64,000 nucleotides of DNA from a virus, in the IMG/VR virus record IMGVR_UViG_3300024999_000042; one strand, written 5' to 3'. Within the stretch, counting starts at the first letter, position 1, and the number at the start of each line of letters is the position of its first letter. The notes below the pieces were generated by a model. The model worked only from the letters and a program-made list of their open reading frames with translations. It did no database searches and had not been told where the DNA came from. Made by a program: the position numbers and the translations under genes. Shown here one piece after another: positions 16,273-42,870 of the stretch.

Positions 16273-17040
16273 TCATGATTGATAATGATAATTAAAATAA
16301 GCACTTTCGCCTGAAACAAAATCTCTAAGAACTTTCTTAACAAAACCAAAAGGATTTTTAATATGGAATTTTGCATTAAAAAGTATTGAAAGCGCTTCCT
16401 TCAATTGGTCAGAATTTGCTTGTACCTCTCTCATTATACTAGTTATAGTCATTGCGAAACTAGAATCTGGGTCTATCCGAGAATCGCCAAGAGTTTTTAT
16501 GATAGACCAATCTTCTTCTTGATTCCAAAATTCTTCTTTTACTAATTCATATTTCTGAGAATCCATACATACAGAAAGAGTATTAATTGTATTAGTATTA
16601 TCTGTATAGATTCCTTCATTTTGAATATTTCCGATTCCTTCATTTTGACTTTTTTGAATTAAGTTATCCACAGATTTAGGTTTTCTCTCTTCTTTTCTAG
16701 GATTTGGTATTCCAATAATTTCATAAAATAAATCATAATCAATTCTATAAAATTTAACATGATGATTTTTAAAACTATTAAATTTTTTAGAAATAAGGAC
16801 TCCACATTTCTCTAATACATTTAATGCTCTTGTGATTGTTGATTCAGATTTTCCCAACTCTTCCATAAAGTTTTCATATGTTTTATAAACCCACCATTCA
16901 TTTTGTTTATACGTTGTCGAACTATCCATCCAATAATCTAATCTACTAAGTATTTCAGCAGGGACTTGACCAAATCTTTTAACAACAGATAATTGTACTA
17001 CTATACAGGCTTCTTCTGGGATCAATGTTTTAATACTCAT
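16273..17040 (-). CDS. replication initiator (winged-helix Rep)
   Basis: WVYKTY..ELGKSESTITRALNVLEKCGVL wHTH; internal 16-bp direct repeat and perfect DnaA box in the linker. Confidence 0.72.
   Translation of the reverse strand: MSIKTLIPEEACIVVQLSVVKRFGQVPAEILSRLDYWMDSSTTYKQNEWWVYKTYENFMEELGKSESTITRALNVLEKCGVLISKKFNSFKNHHVKFYRIDYDLFYEIIGIPNPRKEERKPKSVDNLIQKSQNEGIGNIQNEGIYTDNTNTINTLSVCMDSQKYELVKEEFWNQEEDWSIIKTLGDSRIDPDSSFAMTITSIMREVQANSDQLKEALSILFNAKFHIKNPFGFVKKVLRDFVSGESAYFNYHYQS
16609..16672. promoter_or_regulatory. iteron pair plus DnaA box inside rep
   Basis: GATTCCTTCATTTTGA x2 (24-bp period); TTATCCACA at 16664-16672. Confidence 0.6.
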
Positions 17041-18631: not shown

Positions 18632-18660
18632 TTGTAAAGTATGGGGTAATGCGATATAAT
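18632..18660 (+). promoter_or_regulatory. sigma-A promoter of parM, overlapped by a centromere-like repeat
   Basis: TTGTAA-N17-TATAAT. Confidence 0.6.
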
Positions 18661-18720
18661 CTAGATAAATTTAAATACCACATACTATATAGTGGGGTAA
18701 AATATGAAGGAGGAATATTT

Positions 18721-19572
18721 ATGCCATTTCAAATCATTCCTGTAGATACTGGTCGCAATGAAACAAAACTACTTGATGGTATATCATTTAAGTCAATAGT
18801 TGGAGACTGGCATCACAGAGAAATGTCAGATGGTGGAGAATATGAAGTAATTATTAATGACAAAGAAAAGCATTTTGTAGGGCAACTTGCAGAAGATGAA
18901 TCTTTTGCTCCAACATCTATGAATACAGCATCAAAGATACACAATCAAACTCGTGTATTATTTATTACAGCCGTAGGATTATCTATTGTCGAGAACGAAT
19001 CTGATTTATTGATCGTGACTGGTGTTCCTATAATTGATTTTAATACCACAACTAAGAAAGCATTAGAAGATTTATTATATGGTGATTATGACATTCAAAT
19101 TAACGGAGAACGTAAAAAATTTAGTATTAATAATCTAAAATTAGTTCCTGAAGCAGTTGCTTCTTTTCAATATGCTTTATACAAAGATGAAAGTTTAGCA
19201 ATTGGTAAAAAGAGAATTCTTGACCTTGGTTCGCTCACTGTTAACTACGCCACTATAAAGGAAACTAAGTTTATAACCAGAGATAGTGGAACTGTCCAAT
19301 TCGGCAGTATTAAGCTGAAAGATAATCATATTGATGATAAGCAATATGTACAGAAAATCATCTCAGAGTTGAGTGAAAAATTTACGGATTACGAAGATTC
19401 AGATAGAATTTTATTAACTGGGGGAGGAGCTTTAAAATTTGGTGATTTATTTAAGCAATTTTACAAAAATGTTGAGATAATCACTAATCCAGTCTTTAGT
19501 AATACTAATGGCTACCATCGAATGGGGCTGAAAGCATGGGCAAATCAGTTGGCGAACTCACAGGCAGAGTAA
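18721..19572 (+). CDS. parM: ParM/StbA-family actin-like partition ATPase
   Basis: VDTGRNETK, VTGVP, VPEA, ILDLGSLTVN, LTGGGA; RBS AAGGAGG favours the 18721 start. Confidence 0.88.
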   Translation: MPFQIIPVDTGRNETKLLDGISFKSIVGDWHHREMSDGGEYEVIINDKEKHFVGQLAEDESFAPTSMNTASKIHNQTRVLFITAVGLSIVENESDLLIVTGVPIIDFNTTTKKALEDLLYGDYDIQINGERKKFSINNLKLVPEAVASFQYALYKDESLAIGKKRILDLGSLTVNYATIKETKFITRDSGTVQFGSIKLKDNHIDDKQYVQKIISELSEKFTDYEDSDRILLTGGGALKFGDLFKQFYKNVEIITNPVFSNTNGYHRMGLKAWANQLANSQAE

Positions 19573-19787
19573 AGAGAAAAGGTGTTTATTTTAATCTTGA
19601 TGATGAAGATGAATTATTACTTTACAAAAAAGCAAATGAGATTAGAAATTTTAGCAAATGGGTTAAAAAGCAATTGATTAATGATGGGGTTGTAATTAAG
19701 GAGGGGATAAAAGAGACTGTAGTAGAACATATTAAGGTTGAAAGAAGGAGGATAGAAAAGGATGAACTTGAAGATATAATGCTTTAA
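19536..19787 (+). CDS. ParR-like ribbon-helix-helix adaptor
   Basis: RKGVYFNLDDEDE...NFSKWVKKQL; overlaps parM end. Confidence 0.72.
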   Translation: MGKSVGELTGRVKRKGVYFNLDDEDELLLYKKANEIRNFSKWVKKQLINDGVVIKEGIKETVVEHIKVERRRIEKDELEDIML

Positions 19788-19821
19788 GATGCAACTGTAA
19801 TGGTTGTGTCTTCTTTTTTTT
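19786..19821 (+). terminator. terminator after parMR
   Basis: AAGATGCAAC/GTTGTGTCTT stem plus T-run. Confidence 0.65.
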
Positions 19822-20113: not shown

Positions 20114-20356
20114 ATGCTTAATAAAGTTGAGGTGGAAATTTTACATCACATGTTGCAAAACAAACTTACTGATCAAATCAATAGTCGTACAATTCGCAAT
20201 ATTTCTAAGGGGATTGAAATCAATTATTACAGAACTCGCAATTATGTGAATCACTTGAAGCTTTTAGGTCTGTTGGACTCTGGATTCAAAGAATTAAATT
20301 CAGGTACATTTTACATTACAGCTAAAGGAGTTGAAATGATTGAAACAAAAACCTGA
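20114..20356 (+). CDS. winged-helix DNA-binding protein
   Basis: TIRNISKGIEINYYRTRNYVNHLKLLGLL...FYITAKG. Confidence 0.7.
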   Translation: MLNKVEVEILHHMLQNKLTDQINSRTIRNISKGIEINYYRTRNYVNHLKLLGLLDSGFKELNSGTFYITAKGVEMIETKT

Positions 20357-20567
20357 ATGCAAAATCATATGTAACGAAGGTAATGATTTATTTGATCTTA
20401 TCATAAATGAGGTTTTAAAATGTCTTATGAATCTTGAATACTTACATCTATATGATGATTATTTTTTCAAAGTTCATTGTGAAACTAGTTGTGAAGATGT
20501 TTTAAAACTAAGTTTAGATTATGTTAATTTTATTTTTGTTTATGAGTGCGGAGGAGGGAATTATTAA
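20340..20567 (+). CDS. hypothetical protein
   Basis: ORF track, coupled start. Confidence 0.55.
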   Translation: MKQKPECKIICNEGNDLFDLIINEVLKCLMNLEYLHLYDDYFFKVHCETSCEDVLKLSLDYVNFIFVYECGGGNY

Positions 20568-20788
20568 TAAAGAAATCAATTAAGGTAATTAAATCAAGAA
20601 ATCTAATTAAAATTGAAGGTAAAACTGATGCAGAATTGTATGAAGATTTTACAAGAAGAGTTAATGACTTATATACAATTAGTAAATATTATGAGGAAAA
20701 TAATCTTAAAATGCCTGTATGGGTTGAGGATAAGATTATTGGGATGGGTGAGTTGATTGAGAAGTTGGATATTTTGAGGAGGAGATGA
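20546..20788 (+). CDS. hypothetical protein
   Basis: ORF track. Confidence 0.5.
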   Translation: MRRRELLIKKSIKVIKSRNLIKIEGKTDAELYEDFTRRVNDLYTISKYYEENNLKMPVWVEDKIIGMGELIEKLDILRRR

Positions 20789-20792
20789 ATTA

Positions 20793-20993
20793 ATGCTTAA
20801 ACAACTTATATCTGATGTTCAAAAGCAAATTCATAGTGTTTTTGTAGGTAGGGCAATTATTAGACCACCTTTTATCAATGAAGAAGAATTAATTGATTTT
20901 ACTGTTAAATTAACAGATATTGATAGGAAAACTGTGTCTAGGGTATTGGAAGCTGAATTTGTTTTTCTTAGATTGAAAGGGGTTGTTGAGTGA
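20793..20993 (+). CDS. small protein resembling the HU dimerisation helices
   Basis: INEEELIDFTVKLTDIDRKTVSRVLEA; paralog of 25011..25178. Confidence 0.6.
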   Translation: MLKQLISDVQKQIHSVFVGRAIIRPPFINEEELIDFTVKLTDIDRKTVSRVLEAEFVFLRLKGVVE

Positions 20994-21156
20994 TAATTTT
21001 GTGATGTTTGAATGTTTTATTAAATATGAGCAAAAAATAATCCCCAATAAGGGGATTTGGTGAGAGGGTATATTTCAGCTATGGTTTCATCTTTCCATGA
21101 AATGCTTCATGTTCAAATGAATATGCCCTCTATGCTTGAATTATGCCAGTACATGA

Positions 21157-21249
21157 TTAAAATAATCCACTGCCAATATTTACTATCTGAATTATTGAAT
21201 ATCCAAACCCTACTAAACCTGTTAAAACTAATCCTGCTCCTAAAATCAT
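21157..21249 (-). CDS. 30-aa hydrophobic peptide
   Basis: AAGGAGGT RBS; MILGAGLVLTGLVGFGYSIIQIVNIGSGLF. Confidence 0.5.
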   Translation of the reverse strand: MILGAGLVLTGLVGFGYSIIQIVNIGSGLF

Positions 21250-21372
21250 ATTAATTACCTCCTTAAAATTTTGATTTATTTTTTATGTTGTTTAAAATGA
21301 TTTCTCGCTCACGACCATAATTGTATTGTGTCCTAATTAGATTAATTTATACATGGAAAGGAAGATTAATTT

Positions 21373-21483
21373 ATGAAGATTTTAGAAACTTTATTAAATA
21401 TTGCTTCATACGCATTATTAGCTATGATATCAGTAACGCTTGTTAAATTAGGTATTAAGATTTATAAGTTCAAAAGGAGGTAG
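21373..21483 (+). CDS. 36-aa single-TM peptide
   Basis: MKILETLLNIASYALLAMISVTLVKLGIKIYKFKRR. Confidence 0.55.
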   Translation: MKILETLLNIASYALLAMISVTLVKLGIKIYKFKRR

Positions 21484-21489
21484 TAACTC

Positions 21490-21714
21490 ATGCTTGTTGA
21501 AGCATTTAGAACATCTATATTTCCTTATCTTGTAGAGATAGCGGTCATAATGTTCGTGTATAGTTTATGTGGCCTCGGTTACACAATGTTCCGTAGACCT
21601 GATTTCCAAATGCTTATTGATAAATTAAAGGGTTATATCTTTGCCTATATGTTAGTTAAAGGAGCATTTGTTATTGTAAATTTCATCGACAAAGTTATCG
21701 ACAAGGTAAAATAG
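21490..21714 (+). CDS. two-TM small protein, pilin/VirB2-like topology
   Basis: Two hydrophobic helices around a basic loop; strong RBS. Confidence 0.6.
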   Translation: MLVEAFRTSIFPYLVEIAVIMFVYSLCGLGYTMFRRPDFQMLIDKLKGYIFAYMLVKGAFVIVNFIDKVIDKVK

Positions 21715-21726
21715 GAGGTTCTAATT

Positions 21727-22056
21727 ATGGCAGGTTTCTTGAGGGATTTATTTATACCAGATCCAAACTTTGACACAATTCCAGAAAGCAATTTCATTGA
21801 AAGAGGTATCAGTAATGGAATTGAAAGAGGATTTGGCAAAGTAGGAGACAACATCATAAATGCAGGTAAAATTAAATCTCAAAATATGGCTCTGCATTTA
21901 CCGGATTTAGCAGGAGTAATATTAATGACTTACTTAATTTATATAGGATACAGATCATTTCTTAAACGAGAAGTTCCAGACTTTTCAAACGTTTATACTT
22001 CAATCATGATATATACAATATTCAGACTATTTTGGAAGGTAATATTGCACATATAA
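21727..22056 (+). CDS. membrane protein
   Basis: Two C-terminal hydrophobic segments. Confidence 0.65.
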   Translation: MAGFLRDLFIPDPNFDTIPESNFIERGISNGIERGFGKVGDNIINAGKIKSQNMALHLPDLAGVILMTYLIYIGYRSFLKREVPDFSNVYTSIMIYTIFRLFWKVILHI

Positions 22057-22070
22057 AGGAGTGAAACCCT

Positions 22071-24446
22071 ATGCAACAAAAATCACTAATCAAAATCAAA
22101 AGTAAAGAATTACTTCGTACAGATTCATTTGAATACGAAACATATACTATTACTCCTTCTAGATTTAATATTGAGTCGTCCAAAAGTTTTGAAGAAATCT
22201 TAAATACAATGACCGCAATTACCGAAGATAAACTTAAATTCGATCATCTTTCTAAATCTGTAGTATACAGTAAACCTGCACCATTTTATTATGAAATTTT
22301 ATATGAAGGAAAAACTTCAGTAAAGTTTAATTATGCTATTCCCAATAAACACAGCAAAGTATTGGTCAATAAAATTGATCGTATATTTAGAACATCTTCA
22401 GTAAAAAAATGTGAGATTGATTATTTTTCTAAATTTATAAACAAATATTATTGTGAATTTCAACAGTCTAAACATTTCATGTATTCATTAAATAGTGATT
22501 ATAGGGAGGGTGGTTTATTAGATGGAATAATGAGTGTTCTAAATAATATTCAAGATGACGATTCTGTACTTTTACAAATTGGAATTTATCCTTTACATGA
22601 AAGCAAATGGAAAGAAAAATGGAAAATAGCAAATGTGAAACAAAAGTCAGGAGAAGAATTAATAGTTCACACTAATCCAATTAATTTTGTACTGGATAGT
22701 TTCTTTAATTTGTCTGAGAGTTTTCTAGATGTTTTTGACCATGTGATGGGAGTAGATACTAAAACAAATGAAAAGGTACAAAAACAAATGGATAAAATGG
22801 GCAAGTGGAAAGATTCACATATGACAACTCAAAAAATCAATTTCAATGGTTATGAAGTACAAATTAGAGTTTATTGTACAAGTGAATATAGAACTAAATA
22901 TTATGGAAGAATTTTTGATTCTGTGTTTAAAATACTTGACGCTGATCAAGAACTTGAATTAGGTAAAATTAAGCAACATAAAAGCAAAAACAGAGAATTT
23001 GGAATGCAATTTAGCAAGCAAATTTGGAGCACAAAGGAGTTAGCACATGTATTCCGACTTCCTGACCGCAGAATGCAAATGGATTATAAGGAAAGTTTAA
23101 CTTCAATTGATATTGTTGAAACTGATATTCCAAAAGAATTGCAGAAAGGCCAAATTATAATTGGAGAAAGCACCTATAAAGGAAATGTGATTCCTGTATT
23201 TTGGAATACAAAAGATTATGCAATGGCGACACAGCATAAAGTTATTATTGGTTTGCAAAGAACCGGAAAAAGTTCATATATTAAATCTTATGCTATTGAG
23301 GCAATGAAAGCAGGACATTCGGTTTTTGTTATTGACACGATAAAAATGTGTTCTGTAGCAAGTGATATAAGAGACTTTTTACCTCCTGAATTTCATGAAA
23401 AAATTATTGTATTAGATTATGGTAATCTTGATTATTTACTTCCTTTGAGTTGGAATGAATTATTAAATGATAGATCAAATAGTGCAAGACAAAAAATGAT
23501 GATTGCAAGTCAAATTTCTGCTAATCTTGAATCTTTTATTGAAACTGTTGGAGGATCTACTACAGATGATAAATTATCTCCAAGAATGAGGAAATTCCTT
23601 TCGGCTGCTTCTAAGCTCGTTTTAAGTCAAGAAGGAACAAATTTAAAAGATATTTTAGATGTTTTACAAGAGAAAGAAATTAGGGACAAGTTTATTGCAA
23701 AATCAGGATTATGTGAAACAAATTTAATTGTTCAAGAGTTAAGAAGATTAGATGACCATAAAACTAATGGGACAAACTATAGTTTAGTTTCTGGGATTTC
23801 AGACAGATATTCTATTTTGCTTAATGATTATATTATGGAACAATTATTATCTGTCAAACCTAATCCAGAAATAGATTTTAAATATTGGAGTGAAAATGGT
23901 TATTGTGTGCTTATTAAAATGCCAGATTTAAAATTTGATAGAAGAAGTTTAAGACCCCTTGTGACCTTCATTTATAGTAAGATATGGCTTTCGATGTTAA
24001 GTAGAGGTGAGCAAGAAGAACCAAGAGTAACACATTGTATTTTAGATGAAGTGCATTCGTTTCCAGAGGTGTGTAATATGTTAAGATCAACTTGTAGGGA
24101 ATCAGCTAAATTTGGCCTTTCTTATGTTTTTACAAATCATATGCTCACAGATTTAAAATCTTTGCTTCCTGCTATTAAAAGTTCAGGCGCATCATTTATG
24201 TTATTTAAAACAACAAAGGAAAATTATAAGATGCTTGAACAAGAATTAGCAGAAGGAGAAGTGACAATCGAAGAAGCTCTTACTACTAAAAAATATCATA
24301 GTATTAACATTGTGAACTATGATAGACAATATTCTGTGTTTACCACTAAAGCCCCTGATTTAATAGAAAAGAGATTTAAGAAATATGATAGGAGTCATTT
24401 AGATTTAGAATGCAGCAAAAGATATGGAACTCCTTTTGAAGAATAA
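22071..24446 (+). CDS. VirD4/HerA/FtsK-superfamily P-loop ATPase
   Basis: Walker A HKVIIGLQRTGKS, VFVID, Walker B CILDEVH, RESAKFGL. Confidence 0.8.
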   Translation: MQQKSLIKIKSKELLRTDSFEYETYTITPSRFNIESSKSFEEILNTMTAITEDKLKFDHLSKSVVYSKPAPFYYEILYEGKTSVKFNYAIPNKHSKVLVNKIDRIFRTSSVKKCEIDYFSKFINKYYCEFQQSKHFMYSLNSDYREGGLLDGIMSVLNNIQDDDSVLLQIGIYPLHESKWKEKWKIANVKQKSGEELIVHTNPINFVLDSFFNLSESFLDVFDHVMGVDTKTNEKVQKQMDKMGKWKDSHMTTQKINFNGYEVQIRVYCTSEYRTKYYGRIFDSVFKILDADQELELGKIKQHKSKNREFGMQFSKQIWSTKELAHVFRLPDRRMQMDYKESLTSIDIVETDIPKELQKGQIIIGESTYKGNVIPVFWNTKDYAMATQHKVIIGLQRTGKSSYIKSYAIEAMKAGHSVFVIDTIKMCSVASDIRDFLPPEFHEKIIVLDYGNLDYLLPLSWNELLNDRSNSARQKMMIASQISANLESFIETVGGSTTDDKLSPRMRKFLSAASKLVLSQEGTNLKDILDVLQEKEIRDKFIAKSGLCETNLIVQELRRLDDHKTNGTNYSLVSGISDRYSILLNDYIMEQLLSVKPNPEIDFKYWSENGYCVLIKMPDLKFDRRSLRPLVTFIYSKIWLSMLSRGEQEEPRVTHCILDEVHSFPEVCNMLRSTCRESAKFGLSYVFTNHMLTDLKSLLPAIKSSGASFMLFKTTKENYKMLEQELAEGEVTIEEALTTKKYHSINIVNYDRQYSVFTTKAPDLIEKRFKKYDRSHLDLECSKRYGTPFEE

Positions 24447-24458
24447 GGAGGTGATATT

Positions 24459-24989
24459 ATGGCAATTACTGATTATCCAATTACTTCTGACTGGAATGAA
24501 ATTGATAATATGCATCCAAATGGTCACACAGGAATTGACTATGCCCTGCCACAGAATACACCATTAGAGGCAATTTCAGATGGAGTTATTATAGGAGTAT
24601 CAACCAATGAAATACTAGGCAACAACATACGTTACAAGACTGCTGAAGGCGAAATTATTGTCTATGGACACTTATCTTCATTCAAAGCAAAAATAGGGGA
24701 TATAGTCCATAAAGGGGATATTATTGGAATGTCGGGTGGTGATCCTAAAATACAACCATCTGGAAGGTCGAGTGGTAGTCATTTACATTTAAGTGTTTAT
24801 AGCACAAATGGAATTCTTGTAGATCCGGCTCCTTATGTATTGAATCAAGTGCAACATAATAATTCTAGTCCATTTTTATTTTCTGTAATGTTGATATTAT
24901 TATTTATTGTACTATGGAAATTTAGACGCTTGTTTATTTATAGCATAGCGATTTTACTAATTATATTAATCATATTCATTGTGTCGTAA
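24459..24989 (+). CDS. M23 metallo-endopeptidase with C-terminal membrane hairpin
   Basis: HTGID, YGHLS, SSGSHLHL, VDP; two TM helices at the C-terminus. Confidence 0.88.
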   Translation: MAITDYPITSDWNEIDNMHPNGHTGIDYALPQNTPLEAISDGVIIGVSTNEILGNNIRYKTAEGEIIVYGHLSSFKAKIGDIVHKGDIIGMSGGDPKIQPSGRSSGSHLHLSVYSTNGILVDPAPYVLNQVQHNNSSPFLFSVMLILLFIVLWKFRRLFIYSIAILLIILIIFIVS

Positions 24990-25010
24990 TAGATAAAAGG
25001 AGTGATAATA

Positions 25011-25178
25011 TTGGGAATGATTAAAAATATTATCGACAATTTTACTAAACAAGAAATTGATATTGATGATTTGATAGATTTTATAGTCGAGGAAACACAT
25101 ATTAGAAGAGATACTATTGAGTTAATTTTGGACACAGAAGAAATTTATTTGAGAATGAAAGGAATTATTATTGATTAA
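25011..25178 (+). CDS. HU-helix-like small protein, paralog of 20793..20993
   Basis: IDIDDLIDFIVEETHIRRDTIELILDTEEIYLRMKGII; not in ORF track. Confidence 0.6.
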   Translation: MGMIKNIIDNFTKQEIDIDDLIDFIVEETHIRRDTIELILDTEEIYLRMKGIIID

Positions 25179-25464
25179 AAACAAAGGAGTGGATATTAAT
25201 GGATGAAACTTCCAGAACATTTATTGAACAAGCGATTAATTTTCTCCAATTGGCTACTGATAAACATGGTAAAATTTCAAAAGAAAAAGTAAGAATTATA
25301 AAGAATGTAATTGAGGAGTTAGAAGATGTTCTGTATGAGATGGAGTGATGAATGTCACTCTTTTCTTTTTGAGGATTATTTTTAATAAATTTTAATAAAA
25401 ACTGGCATTAAAACTTGCGAAACTAATAAAATAGATTATAATAGTGTGAAAGGGTTGATTTTGT

Positions 25465-27006
25465 ATGATTTTTAAATTTGATAAAGGTGGAAATATGAAT
25501 ATGGAAGGAGACATACAGGATATGGTTAAGAAGAAGGATAAGGAAAGGTTTTCTCAGATGGATATTGGTGTGGTTAATCAGGTGAAGGAAGAGGTGATGG
25601 GGATGGTAAATGAAACTCAAAGTCAAGTTGCTGTTGGATTTAATGAAGTTTTGGATGAGAATGAGGATGCAGATATGATTCAACAGCATGAAATGGAATT
25701 AGTTAAGGAAATGGAAGGTGAGAGTGATAAGGTTTGGGATAAAGGGAGCAGAGATGGTGAGGAAATGCCCCCAATGATGACTTTGAGTGAAAAAACTAAA
25801 TTAGAGGAGTCAGGTGGTGGCGACAAGGAACAAATTCCGAAAGAGGAATTTAATGAAGAATATAGTGAAACTCAAAGAAAAAAAGATGAGTTAACGAAAA
25901 AACGTGAAATGAAAAAACTTAAACAAGAATTAAAACAAAATGACTTAAAATTAAAAGAAAGTACAAGTTGGTCGTTCCCTTTGGTTGTTCCATGTTCTCG
26001 TAGAGGGGAAATAAAAAAATATGTCACTGTAATATCAGCTTATGATCTTGCCTCTTGGTTTGAAAATTCCATAATAAAATTTATTCCTAGTATTCAACGT
26101 GGTTCAAAATTATCATCTTCAGGACAAGAAAAAGATAATTTTTCACCAAAACACGTAATGGAAATATTTAATGCTTTTACACAAGATAAAATTCATGGAA
26201 ATACGATTGTCCTTAACTATTCACTAGACAATGAATCTGAACTTGTATATATACCTGAAGAAAACAGTATTTCTGGTGATGGTTATCTTCAAGGGGTAGA
26301 TTTCAGCCATCGTGCTAGGGCTGCAGTGAAATGGAAATCGGCTTGGGTTAAGAACCCAGACCAATATGAAGACCCTAGAGAATATCAATTCAACTGCGAA
26401 GTAAATAATCTTAGTGATGACGATGCGCGTGAAATGTTCGCTGAGTACAACAATTACTCTTTAAAAGTAAATCCTACTAGAATTAGCTATTTAGGAAATA
26501 CTAATTTTTCAAATAAAATTACAAGAAAAATTGAATCAGATTCAGATTGGAAAGGGAAGATTGAAACAGTTAGCACAACCATAAAATCATCAAGTCCTAA
26601 TATTTGTACTTTTGGAGTATTAAATAGTGCAATACGGAAAAATTATAACCCTCAAACTAAATTAGAGCAAAAAAATATTGAAAATTGGTTAATAGAATAT
26701 ATTGATGAACTTGTATCAATATTTCCACAATTCATGGCTAATTCTAATTTAGAAGCTCGTAATAATTTAAAGAAGTTGTATTTCACAATTGAACCTCTCG
26801 CTATGGGAGCATTGATTGCATTGAGTGCTGTTTTAAAAGATGATCCAGATTGGAAGATTAAACTTGCTAAATTAGCAAAAGATGATTTCTTTTTAAGAAC
26901 AGATAAGCGTTGGAGACCAGTCCTTAAAGAAGGTGGAAAAATTATCAATGGAACATCGAGCGTTAAGTATTTTAATGAAACTGTCATAAACTGGTGTACT
27001 AAGTAA
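25465..27006 (+). CDS. DndB/DGQHR-like (ParB-superfamily) protein with acidic N-terminal extension
   Basis: IQRG, LQGVDFSHR (DGQHR variant), MFAEYNN; start may be near 25522. Confidence 0.65.
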   Translation: MIFKFDKGGNMNMEGDIQDMVKKKDKERFSQMDIGVVNQVKEEVMGMVNETQSQVAVGFNEVLDENEDADMIQQHEMELVKEMEGESDKVWDKGSRDGEEMPPMMTLSEKTKLEESGGGDKEQIPKEEFNEEYSETQRKKDELTKKREMKKLKQELKQNDLKLKESTSWSFPLVVPCSRRGEIKKYVTVISAYDLASWFENSIIKFIPSIQRGSKLSSSGQEKDNFSPKHVMEIFNAFTQDKIHGNTIVLNYSLDNESELVYIPEENSISGDGYLQGVDFSHRARAAVKWKSAWVKNPDQYEDPREYQFNCEVNNLSDDDAREMFAEYNNYSLKVNPTRISYLGNTNFSNKITRKIESDSDWKGKIETVSTTIKSSSPNICTFGVLNSAIRKNYNPQTKLEQKNIENWLIEYIDELVSIFPQFMANSNLEARNNLKKLYFTIEPLAMGALIALSAVLKDDPDWKIKLAKLAKDDFFLRTDKRWRPVLKEGGKIINGTSSVKYFNETVINWCTK

Positions 27007-27060: not shown

Positions 27061-27846
27061 TTAAGCTTTTATTTTACCTGCAAATCTCAAATGTCCAAAG
27101 TCATAATCTTCTTCATATTTACTTGTTATTATTTTACCATTATCATAATCAAAAATAACTCTGTGAAAATCTTTAAGGACTTCTCTACCTTTTTTAAACA
27201 TTTCTAATATAACTTCGTCTGTAGGAGTATAATCTCTTCTAGATATTATTCTTATTTCTTTCCATCCTTTTTTAACTAAAACAAAGAAACGTCTTTGTTC
27301 TTTTACGTCAAAATATTTTTGAGTGACATTTCCCATCTTTACATTTAAGTTATGTCCTCCACCATCATATTCACAATAAATCATTTCGTCAGGGAAAGCC
27401 ATATCTAACCACAATCTATCTTCGACAGAATAATTTATTTCTCCATTAACTAAATTGCATATGTATCTTTGCATTTTTGAACTGGCTTTTCCAAATTGTT
27501 TAGTTCTTTCTTTTACATCATCAAAATGAAAATTATATTTTGTACCATATGTAATTGCATTAGATTCTTGAGTCTTTTTATTTTGACATTCATTACAACA
27601 ATCTTTTTTGATAACACCATTCCTACTTCTATTAAATTCTTTCCAATGTGGAAAAATATGTTTCTCTATTCCTTCCTCTAAACAATAATCACATAATACA
27701 TCTACTTTTACATGCGATCCTTTTGTCAAGTGTTCTACTTTAACTTCAAATTCATCCTTCATTCCAGTACATACATAACCTAAACCAACATAATGCATAT
27801 ATGTTTTTGCATTCCACGTAGCCATTACTGTTTTACTAATTAACAT
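27061..27846 (-). CDS. homing-endonuclease-like protein (Zn module + Vsr/DUF559-like nuclease)
   Basis: CDYC...CNEC; WLDMAF..IYCEYDGGGH; GWKEIRI. Confidence 0.7.
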   Translation of the reverse strand: MLISKTVMATWNAKTYMHYVGLGYVCTGMKDEFEVKVEHLTKGSHVKVDVLCDYCLEEGIEKHIFPHWKEFNRSRNGVIKKDCCNECQNKKTQESNAITYGTKYNFHFDDVKERTKQFGKASSKMQRYICNLVNGEINYSVEDRLWLDMAFPDEMIYCEYDGGGHNLNVKMGNVTQKYFDVKEQRRFFVLVKKGWKEIRIISRRDYTPTDEVILEMFKKGREVLKDFHRVIFDYDNGKIITSKYEEDYDFGHLRFAGKIKA

Positions 27847-28644: not shown

Positions 28645-30654
28645 TTATAAGTTTTCACAAATTATAAAGGGGTATCCTTCACCATCCATTCCAAATTTCT
28701 CTTTAATAACCTTATTTGCTCTGATTCTCTTCAAACCATAAGAATCCAATATTTCCTTCAATGATTTCTTAATTTGGACTTCAGTTGTAATATATAAATA
28801 TTTGTCTCTTAATTTAATCACAATTTCTCTTTCTGTTGCATACCCCTGTTCTTCGATTAATTCAAATATTGCCCTTACAATATTAAGAGTCCTTTCATCA
28901 CTTTTCTTAGTTGTAGTTCTATCAACAACCTGATATGTACCTTCAACAACCTCTGTAACCTTTTTATATTGAGGGTATAATTCATTTGCCATGTCCAATC
29001 CCTCTGCTCTATAAAACATCTCCCTACTAACACCCTTCATAGTGTAATGATTCTCTTTCCATTGTTTTGCTCGTTGCTCGATTTCAGGAAATTTATTTAC
29101 AGTGTATGAAGGAATAGAAAAGAAATTAATGTGATTATTTTTATCTGTATTAATACTTATTGCTTTTGCTCGCTTTAGAAACCTTTCAGGCAAATCAGCA
29201 TCATCGAGTTTATTAAGTAATTTATGATAAGTTAAAACCACTAATTTTTGATATATTTTATTTATAGAGTTAGGACTAATTCCCATTTGTTTAGCAAAAT
29301 AATTAGCACTAGTAAAGAATGCTACATGACCATCTTCGTCTGTTAAGTTTTCATTCCTTACATTATCCATAGCAATCCATATTAATTTCTCAAGATAATG
29401 TTTTATATTTTTGATATTCTTGTTAGCTTGAGGACAATTTTCTTCAAATTCTATATCACCATTTAATACTCTTAAATTTTCATGCAATATTTCTTTTTGT
29501 TCTTTCTGCCAATCTGTTTCCATAATTTCAAGATTGAACATTTCTTTAATAAATTTATAAGTTTTTGGTCTACTTTGGAAATTAGCTAATCTTTCAATAA
29601 CTCCAATAATATTGTAAGTTATACCACAATTACTACTATGGCATTTATAAATCCATGCTCCATCGTCTGCTTGAAATATTCCTGCTGAATTATTATTATC
29701 ATTGTGGAATATACATTTAATAGAACTTGGATAATGGAACTCTAATAATTCTCCTAAATTAATCTCTTTTCTAATATAATCAATAAATTCTTGATTAGTC
29801 TCAAATATCTTTTTATCTCCTGAACCATATTTCTCCTTTAAATACTTAATATTTCTATTGCTTATTGCTTCAATAGTATAAGTATTGGATTCAAGAGGAG
29901 GGGTTTTAGGGGTACTAGATAATATAGGTATTATTATTTTATCATTATTATCTAGTACCCCTTTTCTTGAATTACTATTATTGAGAGTAATAGTTTTATT
30001 ATTAGATTGTTGTTTAATTTCCTTTGCCTCTATGCCCTTACTTATCTCTATAATGTTGTTACTATTTAATATATTACCACTATTAAAAGGCATTGTTTTA
30101 CCAGCATAATAAAATCTATTTAAATTTTTACAAGATGGATCAGATTCGCCCATCATTTCCATAAAATATAAATGTATTCTTTTAGCTGTCTCAAAATCAG
30201 TAATTACCTTATCAAGTATAAATACCAATCTCATTTTATGTTGTTCTTCTTTATGACTAAAAGAGGTATATATAAAATTAGGTATTAAATTAATATCTTT
30301 ACAATGTTTAATAATATCATCATAACTTTTATGTTGTTTACTTCCTACTAGAAATCTTACTTTTGTCTTTTTCCCTTCAACTAATTTTACAGAATCATTT
30401 AGAACAATATCGTCAGTTAAATTTCCTTCATTATCAATATCAATCATAAATACTTGTTGAGATATCCATTCACTTTCTTGCTTACCACAATAGGATGGCC
30501 TAACTGTCTTGCCCTCAAGAATACTAGTTTTTATCTCTTCGATGGAGTATTCTTTCATAATATCAATTGTCATTCTTTTTGTTATGTCCGATGGATCATA
30601 ACCTTTCGGTTTAGTTTGATAACCTACTGTGTCAATTATTAATTTGATTTCCAT
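28645..30654 (-). CDS. primase-like replication protein (AEP/primpol-like N-terminus + CHC2 zinc finger + wHTH-like region)
   Basis: VFMIDID, YTSFSH..KMRLVF, DPSCKN; CIFHND...YKCHSSNC. Confidence 0.7.
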   Translation of the reverse strand: MEIKLIIDTVGYQTKPKGYDPSDITKRMTIDIMKEYSIEEIKTSILEGKTVRPSYCGKQESEWISQQVFMIDIDNEGNLTDDIVLNDSVKLVEGKKTKVRFLVGSKQHKSYDDIIKHCKDINLIPNFIYTSFSHKEEQHKMRLVFILDKVITDFETAKRIHLYFMEMMGESDPSCKNLNRFYYAGKTMPFNSGNILNSNNIIEISKGIEAKEIKQQSNNKTITLNNSNSRKGVLDNNDKIIIPILSSTPKTPPLESNTYTIEAISNRNIKYLKEKYGSGDKKIFETNQEFIDYIRKEINLGELLEFHYPSSIKCIFHNDNNNSAGIFQADDGAWIYKCHSSNCGITYNIIGVIERLANFQSRPKTYKFIKEMFNLEIMETDWQKEQKEILHENLRVLNGDIEFEENCPQANKNIKNIKHYLEKLIWIAMDNVRNENLTDEDGHVAFFTSANYFAKQMGISPNSINKIYQKLVVLTYHKLLNKLDDADLPERFLKRAKAISINTDKNNHINFFSIPSYTVNKFPEIEQRAKQWKENHYTMKGVSREMFYRAEGLDMANELYPQYKKVTEVVEGTYQVVDRTTTKKSDERTLNIVRAIFELIEEQGYATEREIVIKLRDKYLYITTEVQIKKSLKEILDSYGLKRIRANKVIKEKFGMDGEGYPFIICENL
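29908..29962. repeat. 17-bp perfect inverted repeat in the linker of the primase-like gene
   Basis: AGGGGTACTAGATAATA / TATTATCTAGTACCCCT. Confidence 0.85.
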
Positions 30655-31311: not shown

Positions 31312-32478
31312 TTAACTATTAGTACCCGAATCCATTTTAATAAAATATTTTTCCCAATGATCTGTTATCTTTTTAAATCTTTCTTCTTTGTAAAATTCCT
31401 TACCCTGATACCATTTTCTAACAGGCTTATCATTCTTATCTTTATTACAACTTTGGCAAGCTGGAATTATATCATAGATAATATCACTACTATGTTCTTT
31501 AGATTGTGCTATGACATGCTCAGGAATCAAGTGATTATTCTCATCTTCTTCCTTGCCACAATATGCACAACAATTATCAAACTCATTCTTTATTTTCTCA
31601 AACTCAACATCATTTTTGGTATATCCATTTAAATCAATCCAATGTCCTTTATCTGATTTTACGATTCTTCCAATTAAGACTCCATTAACAAATTTCTCAA
31701 CTAAATCAATTCCATATTCTCTTAATATGTATTGCTTAGTATTACCAACAGTTTTAGGGAATTTAACTCCTAACCAATCTTCTAATGCTTTATAGCAATA
31801 CGAATATTGAGATGGTTCTTGATAAATATTAAATTTATATCCAAACTTATGTATTAAATCATTGAACAAATAACTAGGATTTTTATATTGTTTAAATACA
31901 ACAGTCTCCTTTAATTCAGAAATTGTTGCATTTGCATTGTCTAATTTAACTTCTAAATTATTTACTCTATTGTTTAACCAATTCATATTATCAATTAGTT
32001 CAACATTTTGTTGAGTGATGCTTTCTAATTTATTAATATTGATTTCCATAAATGATTGCATCTTTAATTCTATATCTGCATTATTCTCAACATTGAGTAA
32101 ATAAGTTCTAACTTGTTTTGCTATTATACTATCTCTCAAAAGCATACCTAATCTAAGAATACTTCTCCTTGGAAGAATTGTTAAAGATCCTGCTCTTGAC
32201 TCAATTTGACTCTCCGCTTTCAAAGCGGAAAGTTCTTTTCCTTTTAAAACCTTCATTCCGTCATCAGTTAATTCATCTTTATTATGTCTAATATGGCTTT
32301 CTATAGCATCTATATTAACTTCATAATAATTTGCTACATCTTTAACTGTTGTGTGAAGATTATCTGGCAACAAAACTAGTGCTTTTACTTTTTCTAAGAC
32401 ATAATCTTTATCCATATATTGATCTCTCATTGTTTTTGACTCTACCAACATTAACTCATTATTATTATTATTTTCCAT
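31312..32478 (-). CDS. antirepressor-like DNA-binding domain + coiled coil + HNH endonuclease
   Basis: VANYYEV...LRLGMLLRDSIIAKQVRTYLL; CAYCG...EHVI...PACQSCNKDK. Confidence 0.8.
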   Translation of the reverse strand: MENNNNNELMLVESKTMRDQYMDKDYVLEKVKALVLLPDNLHTTVKDVANYYEVNIDAIESHIRHNKDELTDDGMKVLKGKELSALKAESQIESRAGSLTILPRRSILRLGMLLRDSIIAKQVRTYLLNVENNADIELKMQSFMEININKLESITQQNVELIDNMNWLNNRVNNLEVKLDNANATISELKETVVFKQYKNPSYLFNDLIHKFGYKFNIYQEPSQYSYCYKALEDWLGVKFPKTVGNTKQYILREYGIDLVEKFVNGVLIGRIVKSDKGHWIDLNGYTKNDVEFEKIKNEFDNCCAYCGKEEDENNHLIPEHVIAQSKEHSSDIIYDIIPACQSCNKDKNDKPVRKWYQGKEFYKEERFKKITDHWEKYFIKMDSGTNS

Positions 32479-33286: not shown

Positions 33287-33823
33287 TTATTTCTCCTCTG
33301 TGATAGATTTATTTACAGTTTCTATAACTGATTTAACTGCCAATTCCGCATCGTTTGTTGCTTTGACTAAAACTTTATCATATGTTTCTTTCATCATTTC
33401 TTCAGGAATAGAAATTGTATTTGTTGATGTTTCTTCTTTAATATTATTTTCAATTAATTCTGTTACAGGAATATCAGGTTGAACAATTACATTATCTAAC
33501 TCATTTAAACCCTTCTTAACTTCTAATACACTACTCTCCAATAATAGTCTCCATTGATTATCATCTAATTTTACTCCGTACTTTTTAGCTAATTGATTTG
33601 CTGAATTTAAAGCAGAACTTAGTTTTACACTATTATCAATTCCTAAATCCTTTGAGACTTGATTTACGTAAGTAACTGCATTTGTAGCTATAATTTTTGC
33701 TGTATTAAGTTGTTTAGCGTTTGTATGTTGTCTGATGAATGAGACTAAATATGCGATTACAACTGGCAAACCAGTAGTGATAATTGTGAGTAAAGTGTTA
33801 TAAACTAAAGTATTAAAATCCAT
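33287..33823 (-). CDS. phage holin, LL-H-like
   Basis: N-terminal TM; AVTYVNQ..K; LLESSV; downstream of the endolysin. Confidence 0.75.
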   Translation of the reverse strand: MDFNTLVYNTLLTIITTGLPVVIAYLVSFIRQHTNAKQLNTAKIIATNAVTYVNQVSKDLGIDNSVKLSSALNSANQLAKKYGVKLDDNQWRLLLESSVLEVKKGLNELDNVIVQPDIPVTELIENNIKEETSTNTISIPEEMMKETYDKVLVKATNDAELAVKSVIETVNKSITEEK

Positions 33824-33854
33824 TTAATTCATCTCCTAATTTTCTTATTTTTTA

Positions 33855-34298
33855 TTACATAGAAATTTTAATTCCGTATTTATTAGCTAAATATCCCGCT
33901 ATACAAGCTCCTAAAATAGCTAATACTTTAATAATTATATCTTTTTTATTATTATCTTTTGTTTTTATTACTTCTGTATTTTTTGCATTTTCTGATTTTG
34001 TAATCTCAGTGTCTTTAATGTCTTTTGATTTAATTATCTCTGTATTATTATTACTGGTGTTAAGTACGAGTTGTGTCATTAAATTGGTCATCGAACTGGT
34101 GGTTTGCAAATAATTATTTTCGAAACGTACTAATGTGCCTTTGATATCCTTAACCTGTTCTTCTAGTCCAAACATTTTTTCTTTTGTAGTAGCTGTGTCA
34201 ATTTCTAACTTAATAATCCTGCAACCGTGGTCGTCTAATATTTCCTTGACTTCATTATCATCCAAACTCACATCTAACACCTCTTTCGTAATTAACAT
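33855..34298 (-). CDS. XhlA/holin-associated coiled-coil protein with C-terminal TM
   Basis: LDDHGCRIIKLE; C-terminal TM; lysis cassette position. Confidence 0.6.
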   Translation of the reverse strand: MLITKEVLDVSLDDNEVKEILDDHGCRIIKLEIDTATTKEKMFGLEEQVKDIKGTLVRFENNYLQTTSSMTNLMTQLVLNTSNNNTEIIKSKDIKDTEITKSENAKNTEVIKTKDNNKKDIIIKVLAILGACIAGYLANKYGIKISM

Positions 34299-42819: not shown

Positions 42820-42870
42820 ATAATCAATCACACTCCTTAAATTACACTCAACCAACTAAAAATATAAAAA

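Follow-up and report, generated by a model that had tools for sequence, protein, structure and literature searches.

Organization of the locus

We analysed a 64,000-nucleotide stretch (the window) of IMG/VR virus record IMGVR_UViG_3300024999_000042, which comes from a large phage with a putatively Clostridium-like host. A preliminary description had proposed a DNA-translocation-like operon at positions 20,114 to 25,178. Re-computation of the open reading frames and membrane segments found every listed ORF on the plus strand at the size given before, with the motifs and membrane segments also where they had been placed. The features are as follows; related loci and genomes are designated by L and G numbers.

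18649..19572, plus: ALP/ParM-like actin-like partition ATPase, a context gene (PF17989 ALP_N, 72.9 bits; phrog_691, 3.9e-43)
19536..19787, plus: 83-aa ParR-like ORF overlapping the end of the ALP gene; kept in L004, L011 and L033
19786-19812: terminator after the 83-aa ORF
20114..20356, plus: 80-aa winged-helix (wHTH) protein (PF14947 HTH_45, 1.5e-6; phrog_17403); kept in most relatives
20793..20993, plus: 66-aa small protein with a good Shine-Dalgarno site; paralogue of the 58-aa ORF at 25002-25178
21039..21057, minus: intrinsic terminator 3' of the p30 gene (7-bp stem, 4 GC pairs, T-run)
21157..21249, minus: p30, an uncharged, glycine-rich single-TM micropeptide of 30 codons, with AAGGAGG 8 nt before the ATG
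21250..21372, no strand assigned: divergent promoter spacer; an alignment of 6 loci shows two conserved blocks, which read GTATA-N17-CACAATA on the minus strand upstream of p30
21373..21483, plus: p36, a conserved peptide of 36 aa with one TM segment, basic at its C-terminus
21490..21714, plus: p74, 74 aa; two TM segments form a hairpin joined by an RRPD loop; resembles a pilin in shape only
21727..22056, plus: p109, a conserved soluble N-terminal part of ~55 aa and two C-terminal TM helices
22071-24446, plus: 791-aa P-loop ATPase (phrog_5156, 2e-121 over the full length)
22071..23120, plus: ATPase residues 1-350, N-terminal domain with a predicted VirB4-NTD-like fold
23121..24446, plus: ATPase residues 351-791, coupling-protein-type C-terminal motor domain
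23250-23273, plus: Walker A, GLQRTGKS (residues 394-401)
24039-24056, plus: Walker B, ILDEVH (residues 657-662)
24459..24989, plus: M23 metallopeptidase (PF01551, 69 bits; cut-off 28.7)
24867-24986, plus: C-terminal TM hairpin of the M23 protein with a KFRR loop (residues 137-176)
25002..25178, plus: o58, an ORF of 58 aa (53 aa in the version favoured by gene callers); paralogous to the 20793-20993 ORF
25199..25348, plus: o49, a 49-aa ORF with a good Shine-Dalgarno site, final gene of the unit; kept in L012 and L033
25342..25361, plus: intrinsic terminator ending the operon
25465..27006, plus: DndB-like (DGQHR) 513-aa protein (PF14072, 53.6 bits; phrog_5732)

The region had been described as a single co-oriented run of genes next to ParM and ParR. 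The actin-like gene was confirmed, and the position of the 83-aa ORF, which gave no match in family searches, suggests a ParR role. Co-orientation holds for the core transcription unit (about 21373-25361), in which genes are spaced 6-20 nt apart; good Shine-Dalgarno sites precede p74 through M23, the p36 site is weaker, and o58 has a GTG start with no clear site. The wHTH group (20114-20993), by contrast, is probably a separate transcription unit, because a minus-strand gene, together with that gene's terminator, sits between it and the core. Its 66-aa ORF and o58 cross-match each other in L011, L015 and L033. The DndB-like gene lies outside the core: a constant neighbour on the downstream side, it probably has a promoter of its own (promoter-like site at 25415-25442).

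The intervening minus-strand gene, p30, had been overlooked and is transcribed divergently from the operon. A same-length ORF with a Shine-Dalgarno site and conservative substitutions is present in 9 of 11 loci, and metagenome gene callers also called it independently; family searches returned no match. The upstream boxes are conserved across loci as GTATA-N17-CAYAMTA. The strict pattern GHATR-N17/18-CATNNTA, a putative sigma-G/F consensus applied here to AT-rich DNA, matches L004, L007 and L013 at this position, and the window, L011 and L015 match it there with one mismatch. The background is 0.004-0.014 per 160 nt, to be read with the loci being related, the recurrences thus not independent, and the window copy carrying a mismatch.

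Predicted architecture of the ATPase

The preliminary description had named a TM-less P-loop ATPase of VirD4/HerA type behind small membrane proteins. No TM segment is predicted in the 791 residues, and G399/K400 and D659/E660 of the two Walker motifs are invariant across 20 homologs. The N-domain was folded on its own (pLDDT 79) and compared exhaustively with 48,161 chains; the best match was TrwK/VirB4 (7o42_A; Z 13.1, 252 residues aligned, rmsd 4.3) and the runner-up reached Z 7.2. With Foldseek, VirB4 chains were the only matches at E<1e-3. For the C-domain, VIA Z scores were highest, and effectively tied, for the VirB4 CTD (4ag5, 27.3), DndH-C (26.3) and TrwB (25.8), above DotL and HerA (both 23.8), many HerA defence complexes (19-20) and FtsK (about 17). 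The structure search that had been suggested, TrwB/TraG versus HerA versus FtsK, thus ranks HerA and FtsK lower but leaves VirB4, DndH-C and TrwB level. Judged from these folds, the protein appears to join a VirB4-type N-domain to a coupling-protein-type motor domain, an architecture that is new here. The original class assignment accordingly suits the C-domain but not the N-domain. Likewise, the reported absence of relaxase, VirB4 and VirB6 from the window stands for relaxase and VirB6 but not for VirB4, since the ATPase itself has VirB4 architecture.

The small membrane proteins and the M23 peptidase

None of the small proteins has detectable sequence similarity to VirB3/PrgI or to pilins (Atlas matches <0.9). 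The closest named Atlas clusters for p74 were T4SS_pilin, TrbC/VirB2, DUF3852 and Maff2, all below 0.9 and to be read as leads only. The p109 gene lies directly 5' of the ATPase gene, the slot that VirB3 has in type IV secretion systems (T4SS), and its product shows a weak positional match to SPP1 gp31.2 (E 0.0024), with an NLP[DE] motif before TM1.

The M23 protein has intact catalytic motifs (H23xxxD27, H71, H108xH110), no N-terminal signal and, as first described, a C-terminal TM hairpin; motifs and hairpin (KFR[KR]) are kept in 7 loci. The M23 protein of the alternative cassette in L033 and L034 carries an N-terminal signal-like segment instead of the hairpin, so the catalytic domain probably lies outside the membrane, as had been proposed. 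The peptidase had been counted as part of the machine. It is present and intact, but the gene is missing from L004 and L006, and M23 is therefore an accessory to the module.

Conservation of the cluster and replacement by a complete cassette

In the neighbourhood survey proposed earlier, the order p36-p74-p109-ATPase recurs in L004, L007, L009-L013 and L035, with ATPase identities of 42-83%. In L006 a 41-aa ORF stands where p36 would be, followed by p74-p109-ATPase; L015 retains p36, p74 and p109 on a contig that ends inside the ATPase. Because this gene order recurs across relatives, the cluster is no chance arrangement.

The sister phage L033 carries a different set of genes in the same slot. 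Its flanks share 89% and 82% DNA identity with those of L011, which has the minimal module, and between them a full T4SS-like set replaces that module: M23, T4SS_pilin-like, TrbL/VirB6-like and PrgI-like proteins, a true VirB4 (NF045971, 2.7e-29; NF041017 CedB, 9e-14), a C-domain-only ATPase (phrog_5156, 6.4e-71; CedD weakly, 8e-4) and a MOB_C-type protein (Replic_Relax, 2e-9). This cassette swap is new here. The C-domain-only ATPase is homologous to residues 328-791 of the window ATPase (hhalign 99.5%, E 2e-23); hhalign of p74 against the L033 pilin-like protein was negative, and p109 gave no match to the PrgI-like protein. The DndB-like gene lies 3' of both the minimal and the full cassette and is missing in L006.

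The minimal form, as had been stated, is sparse. A Replic_Relax homolog is absent from the window, and neither the operon nor its immediate surroundings contain a polytopic ORF resembling VirB6. A full T4SS with relaxase elsewhere in the genome had been named as evidence against the original proposal; in G001, a 92%-complete relative, no match to PF13814, PF12846, PF02534, PF01580 or PF03432 was found, and hence neither a relaxase nor a further T4SS ATPase or coupling protein. Without relaxase, VirB6 or VirB8, the window and G001 have no obvious channel or DNA-processing enzyme.

Relationship to phage and plasmid modules

The ATPase has full-length homologs in SPP1 (gene 32), SPO1, CP-51 and Clostridium plasmids, preceded in every case by small TM genes. 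SPP1, SPO1 and CP-51 are lytic phages, and the module is thus not peculiar to plasmid-prophages. We are confident that the operon represents, in large Clostridia phages, the SPP1 gp31.1-gp31.2-gp32 / SPO1 (gp31-gp32) module noted before in these two Bacillus phages, and that it descends in reduced form from a Gram-positive T4SS; the proposed kinship with secretion and conjugation machinery is upheld by the fold searches, and T4SS ancestry is very probable. The translocon idea is not new, having been raised for that module by Godinho et al. in 2018 (PMC6316719). The SPP1 genes are transcribed early, within unit PE5, and the phage grows lytically without genes 31.2 and 32 (PMC6316719).

The suggested restriction to spore-formers holds, with a single exception, for the 137 matching phage records, none coming from Staphylococcus, Streptococcus, Lactococcus, Listeria or Enterococcus, and for nearly all plasmid matches. 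It is broken by one Microcystis phage match and by distant relatives throughout Patescibacteria, and could reflect mere gene flow among related phages.

Substrate and possible functions

Replic_Relax is the MOB_C relaxase family, which travels with VirD4-type coupling proteins (PMC5357655). Such a gene lies directly 3' of the ATPase gene in SPO1 (47.3 bits) and G004 (57 bits), with a weak match only (19 bits) in the Clostridium clade. In SPO1-type phages the ATPase is accompanied by both an actin-like and a MOB_C-type gene. SPO1/CP-51-type phages and L037 likewise have an ALP gene 5' of the ATPase gene, and L006 has TubZ instead; one or the other is present in four lineages. Because MOB_C-type genes stand beside the ATPase in relatives and the module stands beside DNA-segregation genes, the DNA substrate proposed earlier is plausible, and we lean slightly towards phage DNA. 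VirB4 ATPases are not known to move DNA by themselves, which counts against a DNA pump.

VirB4 proteins supply the energy for assembling the pilus and the machine, not for pumping DNA, and the module may, with some possibility, be a T4SS-derived membrane machine with a non-DNA job whose DNA-related neighbours are incidental. It might serve protein export or assembly, for example by bringing the signal-less M23 domain to the outer side or building a surface structure from p74. Remodelling of the wall or membrane at an early stage of infection, or a block to superinfection, would be other such jobs. The relaxase-free minimal clade, an M23 protein expected to act outside the membrane without a signal peptide, the early, dispensable SPP1 genes and, as a lead only, the pilin families nearest p74 are consistent with such a role. 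However, the C-domain family occupies the coupling-protein position beside a MOB_C-type gene in L033 and stands beside one in SPO1, ALP or TubZ adjacency recurs, and M23 export cannot be the core function where M23 is missing. Virion-free passage of the phage genome into neighbouring cells through conjugation-like contact would fit the ancestry, the complete L033 set and the MOB_C-type genes of SPO1-type phages, but we consider it unlikely: in the window and in 92%-complete G001 the minimal clade lacks relaxase, VirB6-like channel and separate coupling protein, the module is also carried by strictly lytic phages, and 37 of 40 carrier plasmids in PLSDB are typed non-mobilizable. On pCLJ the module lies apart from the annotated T4SS genes, with TraG/TraK elsewhere and the plasmid typed MPF_T, so it is not simply the conjugation apparatus.

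A role in defence or counter-defence, built on a HerA/DndH/mad8-type ATPase and possibly the DndB-like neighbour, is suggested by the DndH-C and HerA scores, by PADLOC mad8 (residues 380-715, 4.9e-11) and by the DndB-like gene always being next downstream in the window's clade. These matches span only the shared P-loop domain, however, and the N-domain is of VirB4 rather than HerA type. PADLOC gave no defence-family match for the small proteins, M23 or DndB-like protein, and the DndB-like gene, set apart by a terminator as a unit of its own, also follows the L033 cassette, which makes this reading quite improbable. The archaeal Ced system has a similar parts list, small membrane proteins and a VirB4-like ATPase with no relaxase, and two L033 ATPases match CedB and, weakly, CedD. 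Yet import of the rest of the phage genome or of foreign DNA seems highly improbable for the window: its ATPase gives no Ced match, a CedA/VirB6-like polytopic protein is absent, proteins made only after infection cannot help first DNA entry, and SPP1 manages without genes 31.2 and 32.

For movement of phage DNA, our best specific guess, offered tentatively as a whole chain, concerns the forespore. The ATPase would oligomerise, its N-domain docking on the small membrane proteins in the manner of VirB4 on VirB3. The M23 domain, anchored outside by its C-terminal hairpin, would cut peptidoglycan locally, and ATP hydrolysis would push a macromolecule through the complex. If the host sporulates, the extrachromosomal phage genome could thereby be helped across, or kept at, the septum and so reach the forespore, the compartment in which p30 would be produced; assembly, substrate, direction and timing are all conjectural here. 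Indirect hints of a forespore connection are the spore-former bias of the matches, the boxes upstream of p30 and the trapping of SPO1 genomes in spores (PMC12991052).

Organization of the module

The window is part of a large tailed phage. Its G+C content is about 28-30%, and it encodes ribonucleotide reductase, thymidylate synthase, tail proteins, a Xer-type integrase, a replication initiator, an actin-like partition gene and many homing endonucleases. A near-identical ATPase (P0044; same 90%-identity cluster) is found on 16 contigs, and several groundwater metagenomes contain the same phage. No DNA near-identical to the window was found in the phage and plasmid collections searched. The module and its surroundings are laid out as follows.

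Features of the module and its boundaries
18649-19572: ALP, a ParM-like actin gene
19786-19812: terminator after the ParR-like ORF
21157-21249, minus strand: p30, a divergent micropeptide gene
21373-21483, plus strand: p36, small membrane protein
21490-21714, plus strand: p74, small membrane protein
21727-22056, plus strand: p109, small membrane protein
22071-24446, plus strand: 791-aa ATPase
24459-24989, plus strand: M23 peptidase
25342-25361: terminator after the 49-aa ORF (o49)

The ORFs named in the preliminary description are all present with the features claimed for them, but its gene list overlooked p30. This 30-codon ORF encodes an uncharged, glycine-rich TM peptide, has AAGGAGG 8 nt 5' of its ATG and is followed by a terminator at 21057-21039. 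It is found in 9 of 11 loci with equal length, a Shine-Dalgarno site and conservative substitutions, and it is also predicted by independent gene callers. Because this minus-strand gene with its own terminator separates the winged-helix (wHTH) group from p36, we define the core unit as about 21373-25361. The wHTH and 66-aa genes are conserved as an upstream unit that is probably transcribed separately from the core. Within the operon, intergenic distances are 6-20 nt, and good Shine-Dalgarno sites precede p74 through M23, and o49. The ALP gene product contains an ALP_N domain (72.9 bits against a cut-off of 26.3), and the overlapping 83-aa ORF is a putative small adaptor gene downstream. Paralogous 66-aa (20793-20993) and 58-aa (25002-25178) proteins flank the core operon and cross-match in the related loci L011, L015 and L033. 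A DndB-like protein of 513 aa (DGQHR, PF14072; 25465-27006) with a long acidic N-terminal extension forms a separate unit 3' of the module, and a DndB-like gene follows the module in nearly all relatives, regardless of cassette type.

NCBIfam contained no match for the small membrane proteins or for the ATPase, Atlas feature searches scored <0.9, and hhalign comparisons of p109 and p74 with the PrgI-like and pilin-like proteins of L033 and with SPP1 gp31.1 were negative. No polytopic VirB6-like ORF lies in the operon or beside it. A complex prediction for the ATPase N-domain with p109 scored 0.00 and, run without controls, speaks neither for nor against contact.

The ATPase combines a predicted VirB4-like N-domain with a coupling-protein-like motor

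We modeled the ATPase with AlphaFold from a 20-sequence alignment (pLDDT 82). Searched by structure, the C-domain (about residues 345-785) matched the VirB4 C-domain 4ag5 with a Z score of 27.3, DndH-C with 26.3, TrwB with 25.8 (376 residues aligned), DotL and HerA with 23.8, and FtsK with about 17. VirB4, DndH-C and TrwB are nearly tied for the fold of this domain (Z 25.8-27.3), and HerA and FtsK both fall under VirB4 and TrwB. The RecA-like C-domain carries Walker A and B motifs, with invariant GKS and DE, and has a TrwB-type nucleotide-binding domain with a helical insert, placed at residues 472-608 in the model.

Only TrwK/VirB4 gave a whole-length alignment, and we therefore folded residues 1-350 separately (pLDDT 79). 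In an exhaustive search against 48,161 chains, this N-domain matched TrwK/VirB4 (7o42_A) with Z 13.1 over 252 aligned residues, and the next match scored 7.2; no HerA chain was listed. Foldseek matches below 1e-3 were to VirB4 chains only. These structure matches indicate that the ATPase has a VirB4-like architecture. The protein shares with VirB4 ATPases (TrwK of R388, Thermoanaerobacter VirB4, and ConE, PrgJ and CD1110-type of Gram-positives) a soluble two-domain architecture of about 800 aa, and a small two-TM gene lies directly 5' of the ATPase gene, in the position of virB3. In contrast to these proteins, it lacks VirB6 and VirB8 partners, its C-domain sequence is nearer to coupling-protein types, and the VirB4 models PF03135, PF12846 (AAA_10), TIGR00929 and NF045971 from Pfam and NCBIfam gave no match to it at E<=0.1. 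VirB4 models do match the true VirB4 of L033, a related phage contig.

The weak sequence signals favor coupling proteins (TrwB, VirD4, DotL), with matches to TrwB_AAD_bind (0.002; 17.5 bits, below the 20.5 cut-off) and DotL (0.03) and none to PF02534. The fold of the C-domain (Z 23.8-25.8) and the position of a C-domain-only homolog in L033, between VirB4 and a MOB_C-type (Replic_Relax, PF13814) gene, are further likenesses. Unlike coupling proteins, the 791-aa ATPase has no hydrophobic segment that could serve as an N-terminal TM anchor, which is replaced by the 350-aa VirB4-like domain, and no relaxase is present in the window's clade. A single-sequence PDB search returned only QacR and BmdC, which we rejected as spurious; the profile search yielded just marginal matches to DotL and TrwB.

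The preliminary description had compared the ATPase with Streptomyces TraB and the SpoIIIE-FtsK double-stranded DNA pumps. The likeness consists of a single ATPase of the same broad superfamily and a proposed movement of DNA across a septum or wall. The comparison holds as analogy and not as membership: TM and gamma domains of the FtsK type are missing from the ATPase, its fold is clearly less similar to FtsK (Z about 17 versus 26-27), and PF01580 is silent on the ATPase and absent from G001, a related contig.

The module is of a kind already described in SPP1

The ATPase matches phrog_5156 over its full length (2e-121; residues 10-790 on profile positions 16-798 of 824). Full-length distant homologs (22-30% identity) are encoded by SPP1 gene 32, SPO1-like phages, CP-51 and 40 plasmids, and in the phrog_5156/SPP1 gp32 family small TM-protein genes lie co-oriented directly 5' of the ATPase gene. 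In SPP1, gene 32 is preceded by the small genes 31, 31.1 and 31.2. Godinho et al. (2018, PMC6316719) reported that SPP1 gp32 has no TM segment and that HHpred relates its C-terminus to TrwB, VirB4 and FtsK; they described gp31.1 and gp31.2 as TM proteins that may form a translocon with gp32, and found genes 31.2 and 32 to be dispensable. Because this module was published in 2018, its kind is not new.

The window's operon resembles SPP1 31/31.1/31.2/32 (also found in Geobacillus phage GBK2) in its ATPase family, with a full-length tblastn match at 22% identity. It also resembles SPP1 in the lack of a TM segment in the ATPase, in the two or three small TM proteins directly upstream with a winged-helix protein further upstream, and in a weak similarity of p109 to gp31.2. 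In contrast, SPP1 is lytic and lacks both ALP and M23, a divergent micropeptide of the p30 type was not seen in it, and its sequence identity is low; gene 33, which encodes a beta-helix wall-binding protein of another unit, comes next instead. The window's variant of the module features an M23 with a C-terminal hairpin, the divergent micropeptide and the linkage to ALP. The structure model adds a VirB4-type N-domain, since the SPP1 paper had noted C-terminal similarity only.

SPO1/CP-51/Shanette-type Bacillus myoviruses (the SPO1 ParM gene 27.9 region) likewise have a trio of small TM ORFs followed by a full-length ATPase homolog, with an ALP gene about 1 kb upstream. They differ in that the phages are lytic, the ATPase is about 907 aa long and a Replic_Relax/MOB_C-type protein comes next rather than M23. 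In the announcement of phage Grass, ParM and a gene annotated 'FtsK/SpoIIIE' had already been pointed out (PMC3853049).

Sister phages carry an alternative cassette at the same site

The minimal module is carried by L011, a relative of the window, and two further contigs, L033 and L034, are members of L011's phage lineage. The left flanks are 89% identical in DNA (L011 3337-5727 and L033 1-2369), and the right flanks 82% (L011 10159-11836 and L033 9659-11305). Between them, L011 has p30, p36, p74, p109, ATPase and M23 in about 4.4 kb; L033 has an alternative set in about 7.3 kb.

Products of the alternative cassette in L033
M23 peptidase with an N-terminal signal-like segment: PF01551, 100 bits
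86 aa, two TM: T4SS_pilin, 0.002
344 aa, 5-6 TM: TrbL/VirB6, 0.014
138 aa: PrgI family, 1.3e-4
502 aa, true VirB4: NF045971, 2.7e-29; DUF87 and AAA_10; CedB, 9e-14
567 aa: phrog_5156, 6.4e-71, profile positions 380-808 only; hhalign 99.5%, E 2e-23, to window ATPase residues 328-791
254 aa: Replic_Relax, 2e-9

Several of these matches are individually weak, yet the genes stand in the usual order of a type IV secretion system (T4SS). In this full set, the family of the window's C-domain holds the place of the coupling protein, with VirB4 on one side and the relaxase-type gene on the other. The minimal set has no separate VirB4, and its C-domain of this family bears a VirB4-like N-domain. Because hhalign detected no sequence similarity between the ATPase N-domain and the L033 VirB4, fusion and divergence are indistinguishable as origins of the ATPase. 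A further implication of the swap is that the roles of VirB4 and coupling protein may be united in one ATPase, a point that concerns the minimum size of a type IV-like machine.

The cassette at L033:2882-9287 (also L034:441-7119) is on an IMG/VR viral contig with shared ALP, wHTH and DndB-like flanks, and it comprises a seemingly complete Gram-positive T4SS and a MOB_C-type gene. L033 is a candidate for a phage that could conjugate, and the swap indicates that tailed phages can carry an apparent whole conjugation set.

A complete Gram-positive conjugative T4SS (VirB4, VirB6, coupling protein and relaxase) is lacking in the window. The preliminary description had held that a full T4SS and relaxase elsewhere in the genome would count against its reading, and we looked for them in related contigs. 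G001, a 153.8-kb contig rated 92% complete, has the minimal module, M23 included, and also encodes a homolog of the window's tail protein. We found no Replic_Relax (PF13814), AAA_10 (PF12846), T4SS-DNA_transf (PF02534), FtsK_SpoIIIE (PF01580) or MOB_P Relaxase (PF03432) in it; the SPO1-type contig G004 served as positive control for Replic_Relax. The absence of these families from G001 indicates that the minimal module stands alone within the phage.

The M23 peptidase is an accessory protein

The M23 protein has a Peptidase M23 (LytM) domain (69 bits against a cut-off of 28.7) with intact, conserved zinc ligands (H23xxxD27 and H108xH110). Its C-terminal segment, SPFLF…KFR[KR]…IIFIVS, is kept in seven loci. 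The positive loop of this segment and the signal-like N-terminus of the alternative cassette's M23 both argue for a hairpin with a predicted N-out/C-out topology. The gene is absent from the related loci L004 and L006, and we therefore consider it accessory. Two other assignments were rejected. A holin/XhlA-type lysis region lies elsewhere (33287-34298), so M23 is not the main endolysin; nor is it SpoIIQ, for which the equivalog model scored 29.5 bits against a cut-off of 250 and which has an N-terminal TM rather than a C-terminal anchor.

Genes linked to DNA transfer and segregation adjoin the ATPase

Replic_Relax (PF13814) is the MOB_C relaxase family and is associated with VirD4-type coupling proteins (PMC5357655). 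It has no homolog in the window, but lies directly 3' of the ATPase gene in SPO1 (47.3 bits) and G004 (57 bits). The literature consulted on SPO1/CP-51-type phages contained no mention of a relaxase-type gene beside the ATPase. SPO1 (L025:4779-10289), CP-51 (L032) and Shanette (L026) each have a co-oriented block of ALP, a 129-141-aa ORF, three small ORFs (mostly TM), the roughly 907-aa ATPase and the Replic_Relax/MOB_C-type protein; one further locus, L029, has a block of this type with no ALP detected. In a clade of Clostridium chromosomes and plasmids, a conserved ORF of about 212 aa (199-217) follows the ATPase (L037:9460-10098, L019:9443-10042 and L003:6770-7423). Its product has no Pfam match as a protein, and in the genome search the L037 copy reached a sub-threshold 19 bits to Replic_Relax; the product could be a divergent nuclease of the MOB_C type.

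The window's clade, SPO1/CP-51-type phages and L037 all have ALP 1-3 kb 5' of the ATPase gene. At L006:3586-4638, the place of the actin-like partition gene, immediately 5' of the module, is taken by a TubZ-type tubulin gene. The module is linked to a segregation filament across filament types.

The ATPase family is found mainly in elements of endospore-formers

Among phage records matching the ATPase, 127 of 137 are Bacillus phages. Hosts named in the phage matches are Bacillus, Lysinibacillus, Geobacillus, Brevibacillus, Alicyclobacillus and Clostridium, with one Microcystis exception; we take two 'Deep-sea' thermophilic phage records to be Geobacillus phages. Phages of non-sporulating Bacillota genera were absent from the phage matches. 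The 40 matching plasmids are mostly large Clostridium plasmids (genera Clostridium, Bacillus, Alicyclobacillus, Laceyella, Thermoactinomyces and Embleya), and the family is rare in the Clostridium-phylum sample (5 of 401 genomes). Relatives of the ATPase at about 20% identity are very common in Patescibacteria/CPR genomes (loci L038-L114); these are presumably the T4SS-like ATPases of those organisms and could help to root the family.

Plasmid pCLJ, which transfers by conjugation (PMC2884020), carries the module (L118, 62126-64528) among hypothetical genes, away from its annotated T4SS genes. With its MPF_T typing and TraG/TraK-type genes at other sites, pCLJ shows that the module coexists with a conventional T4SS. 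On other large Clostridium plasmids, typed MPF_T or reported to be conjugative, the gp32-type ATPase likewise lies among hypothetical genes.

Possible functions of the module

We conclude that the operon very probably encodes a pared-down membrane module of T4SS type, of the kind represented by SPP1 gp31-32. The MOB_C-type and segregation-gene neighbors, together with the coupling-protein position of the C-domain, incline us toward DNA as the more likely substrate. As for a specific role, we tentatively rank the loading or retention of DNA in the forespore first. Spores are known to trap SPO1 genomes (PMC12991052). How lytic and plasmid-like phage genomes enter spores is an old question, the chromosome being what the SpoIIIE pump of the host acts on, and the module is a concrete candidate that could be deleted in SPP1, SPO1 and B. 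subtilis.

The spacer between p30 and p36 bears on where p30 might be expressed. These 123 nt contain only two conserved blocks, which read GTATA-N17-CA[TC]A[AC]TA on the minus strand. The conserved TATACAT block is too near the p36 Shine-Dalgarno site to be the p36 -10 element, and was therefore assigned to the minus strand. Three loci have strict GHATR-N17/18-CATNNTA here, and another three, among them the window, have it with one mismatch, against a background of 0.004-0.014 per 160 nt. The boxes are a candidate match to the forespore sigma-G/F consensus, with the relatedness of the loci and the AT-richness of the DNA as caveats. No convincing, conserved promoter type was found for the plus-strand operon.

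A more elaborate and more speculative proposal is that phages and large plasmids of endospore-formers carry a dedicated, T4SS-derived machine that crosses the septum and brings extrachromosomal genomes into the forespore or keeps them there. Such a machine would consist of one ATPase in which the docking domain of VirB4 and the motor of a coupling protein are merged, a few micro-membrane proteins and, in some cases, a wall peptidase, and it would be expressed compartment-specifically, with p30 on the forespore side. If true, this would explain how even lytic phages become 'virospores'.

A membrane role unrelated to DNA is as possible as the forespore role or close behind it, and the module would even then be a widespread, uncharacterized phage membrane machine. 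Transfer of the phage genome from cell to cell, one of the two routes in the preliminary description, is improbable in our estimate; the observations of that description were borne out, and its interpretation as a transfer channel is supported in part. Ranked below transfer is DNA import like that of the archaeal Ced/Ted systems, in which small membrane or pilin-like proteins and a VirB4-like ATPase operate without a relaxase. The minimal set of parts is alike, and CedB and CedD models match the L033 ATPases; unlike Ced/Ted, the operon has no CedA-like polytopic protein, the window's own proteins have no Ced match, and the systems belong to another domain of life and type of element. A defense role is also placed below cell-to-cell transfer, its sole support being the shared P-loop domain.

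Other genes of the window

Homing-endonuclease-type genes (HNH, GIY-YIG and others) are unusually many and scattered (4684-5475, 27061-27846, 31312-32478, 41599-42855, 47527-48300 and 60787-63558). An IS605-type TnpB/OrfB gene (phrog_506, 5.5e-111) lies within the nucleotide-metabolism region at 7667-8800, and TnpB genes are also found near the ATPase module in L006 and pCLJ. A 669-aa protein (phrog_25531; 28645-30654, minus strand) has as its positional counterpart in L004 a 513-aa ORF annotated AEP-TOTE (primase-polymerase type), and may act in replication in addition to the DnaD/O-like initiator encoded at 16273-17040. Finally, a 3017-aa ORF (50110-59163, minus strand) is located among the structural genes.
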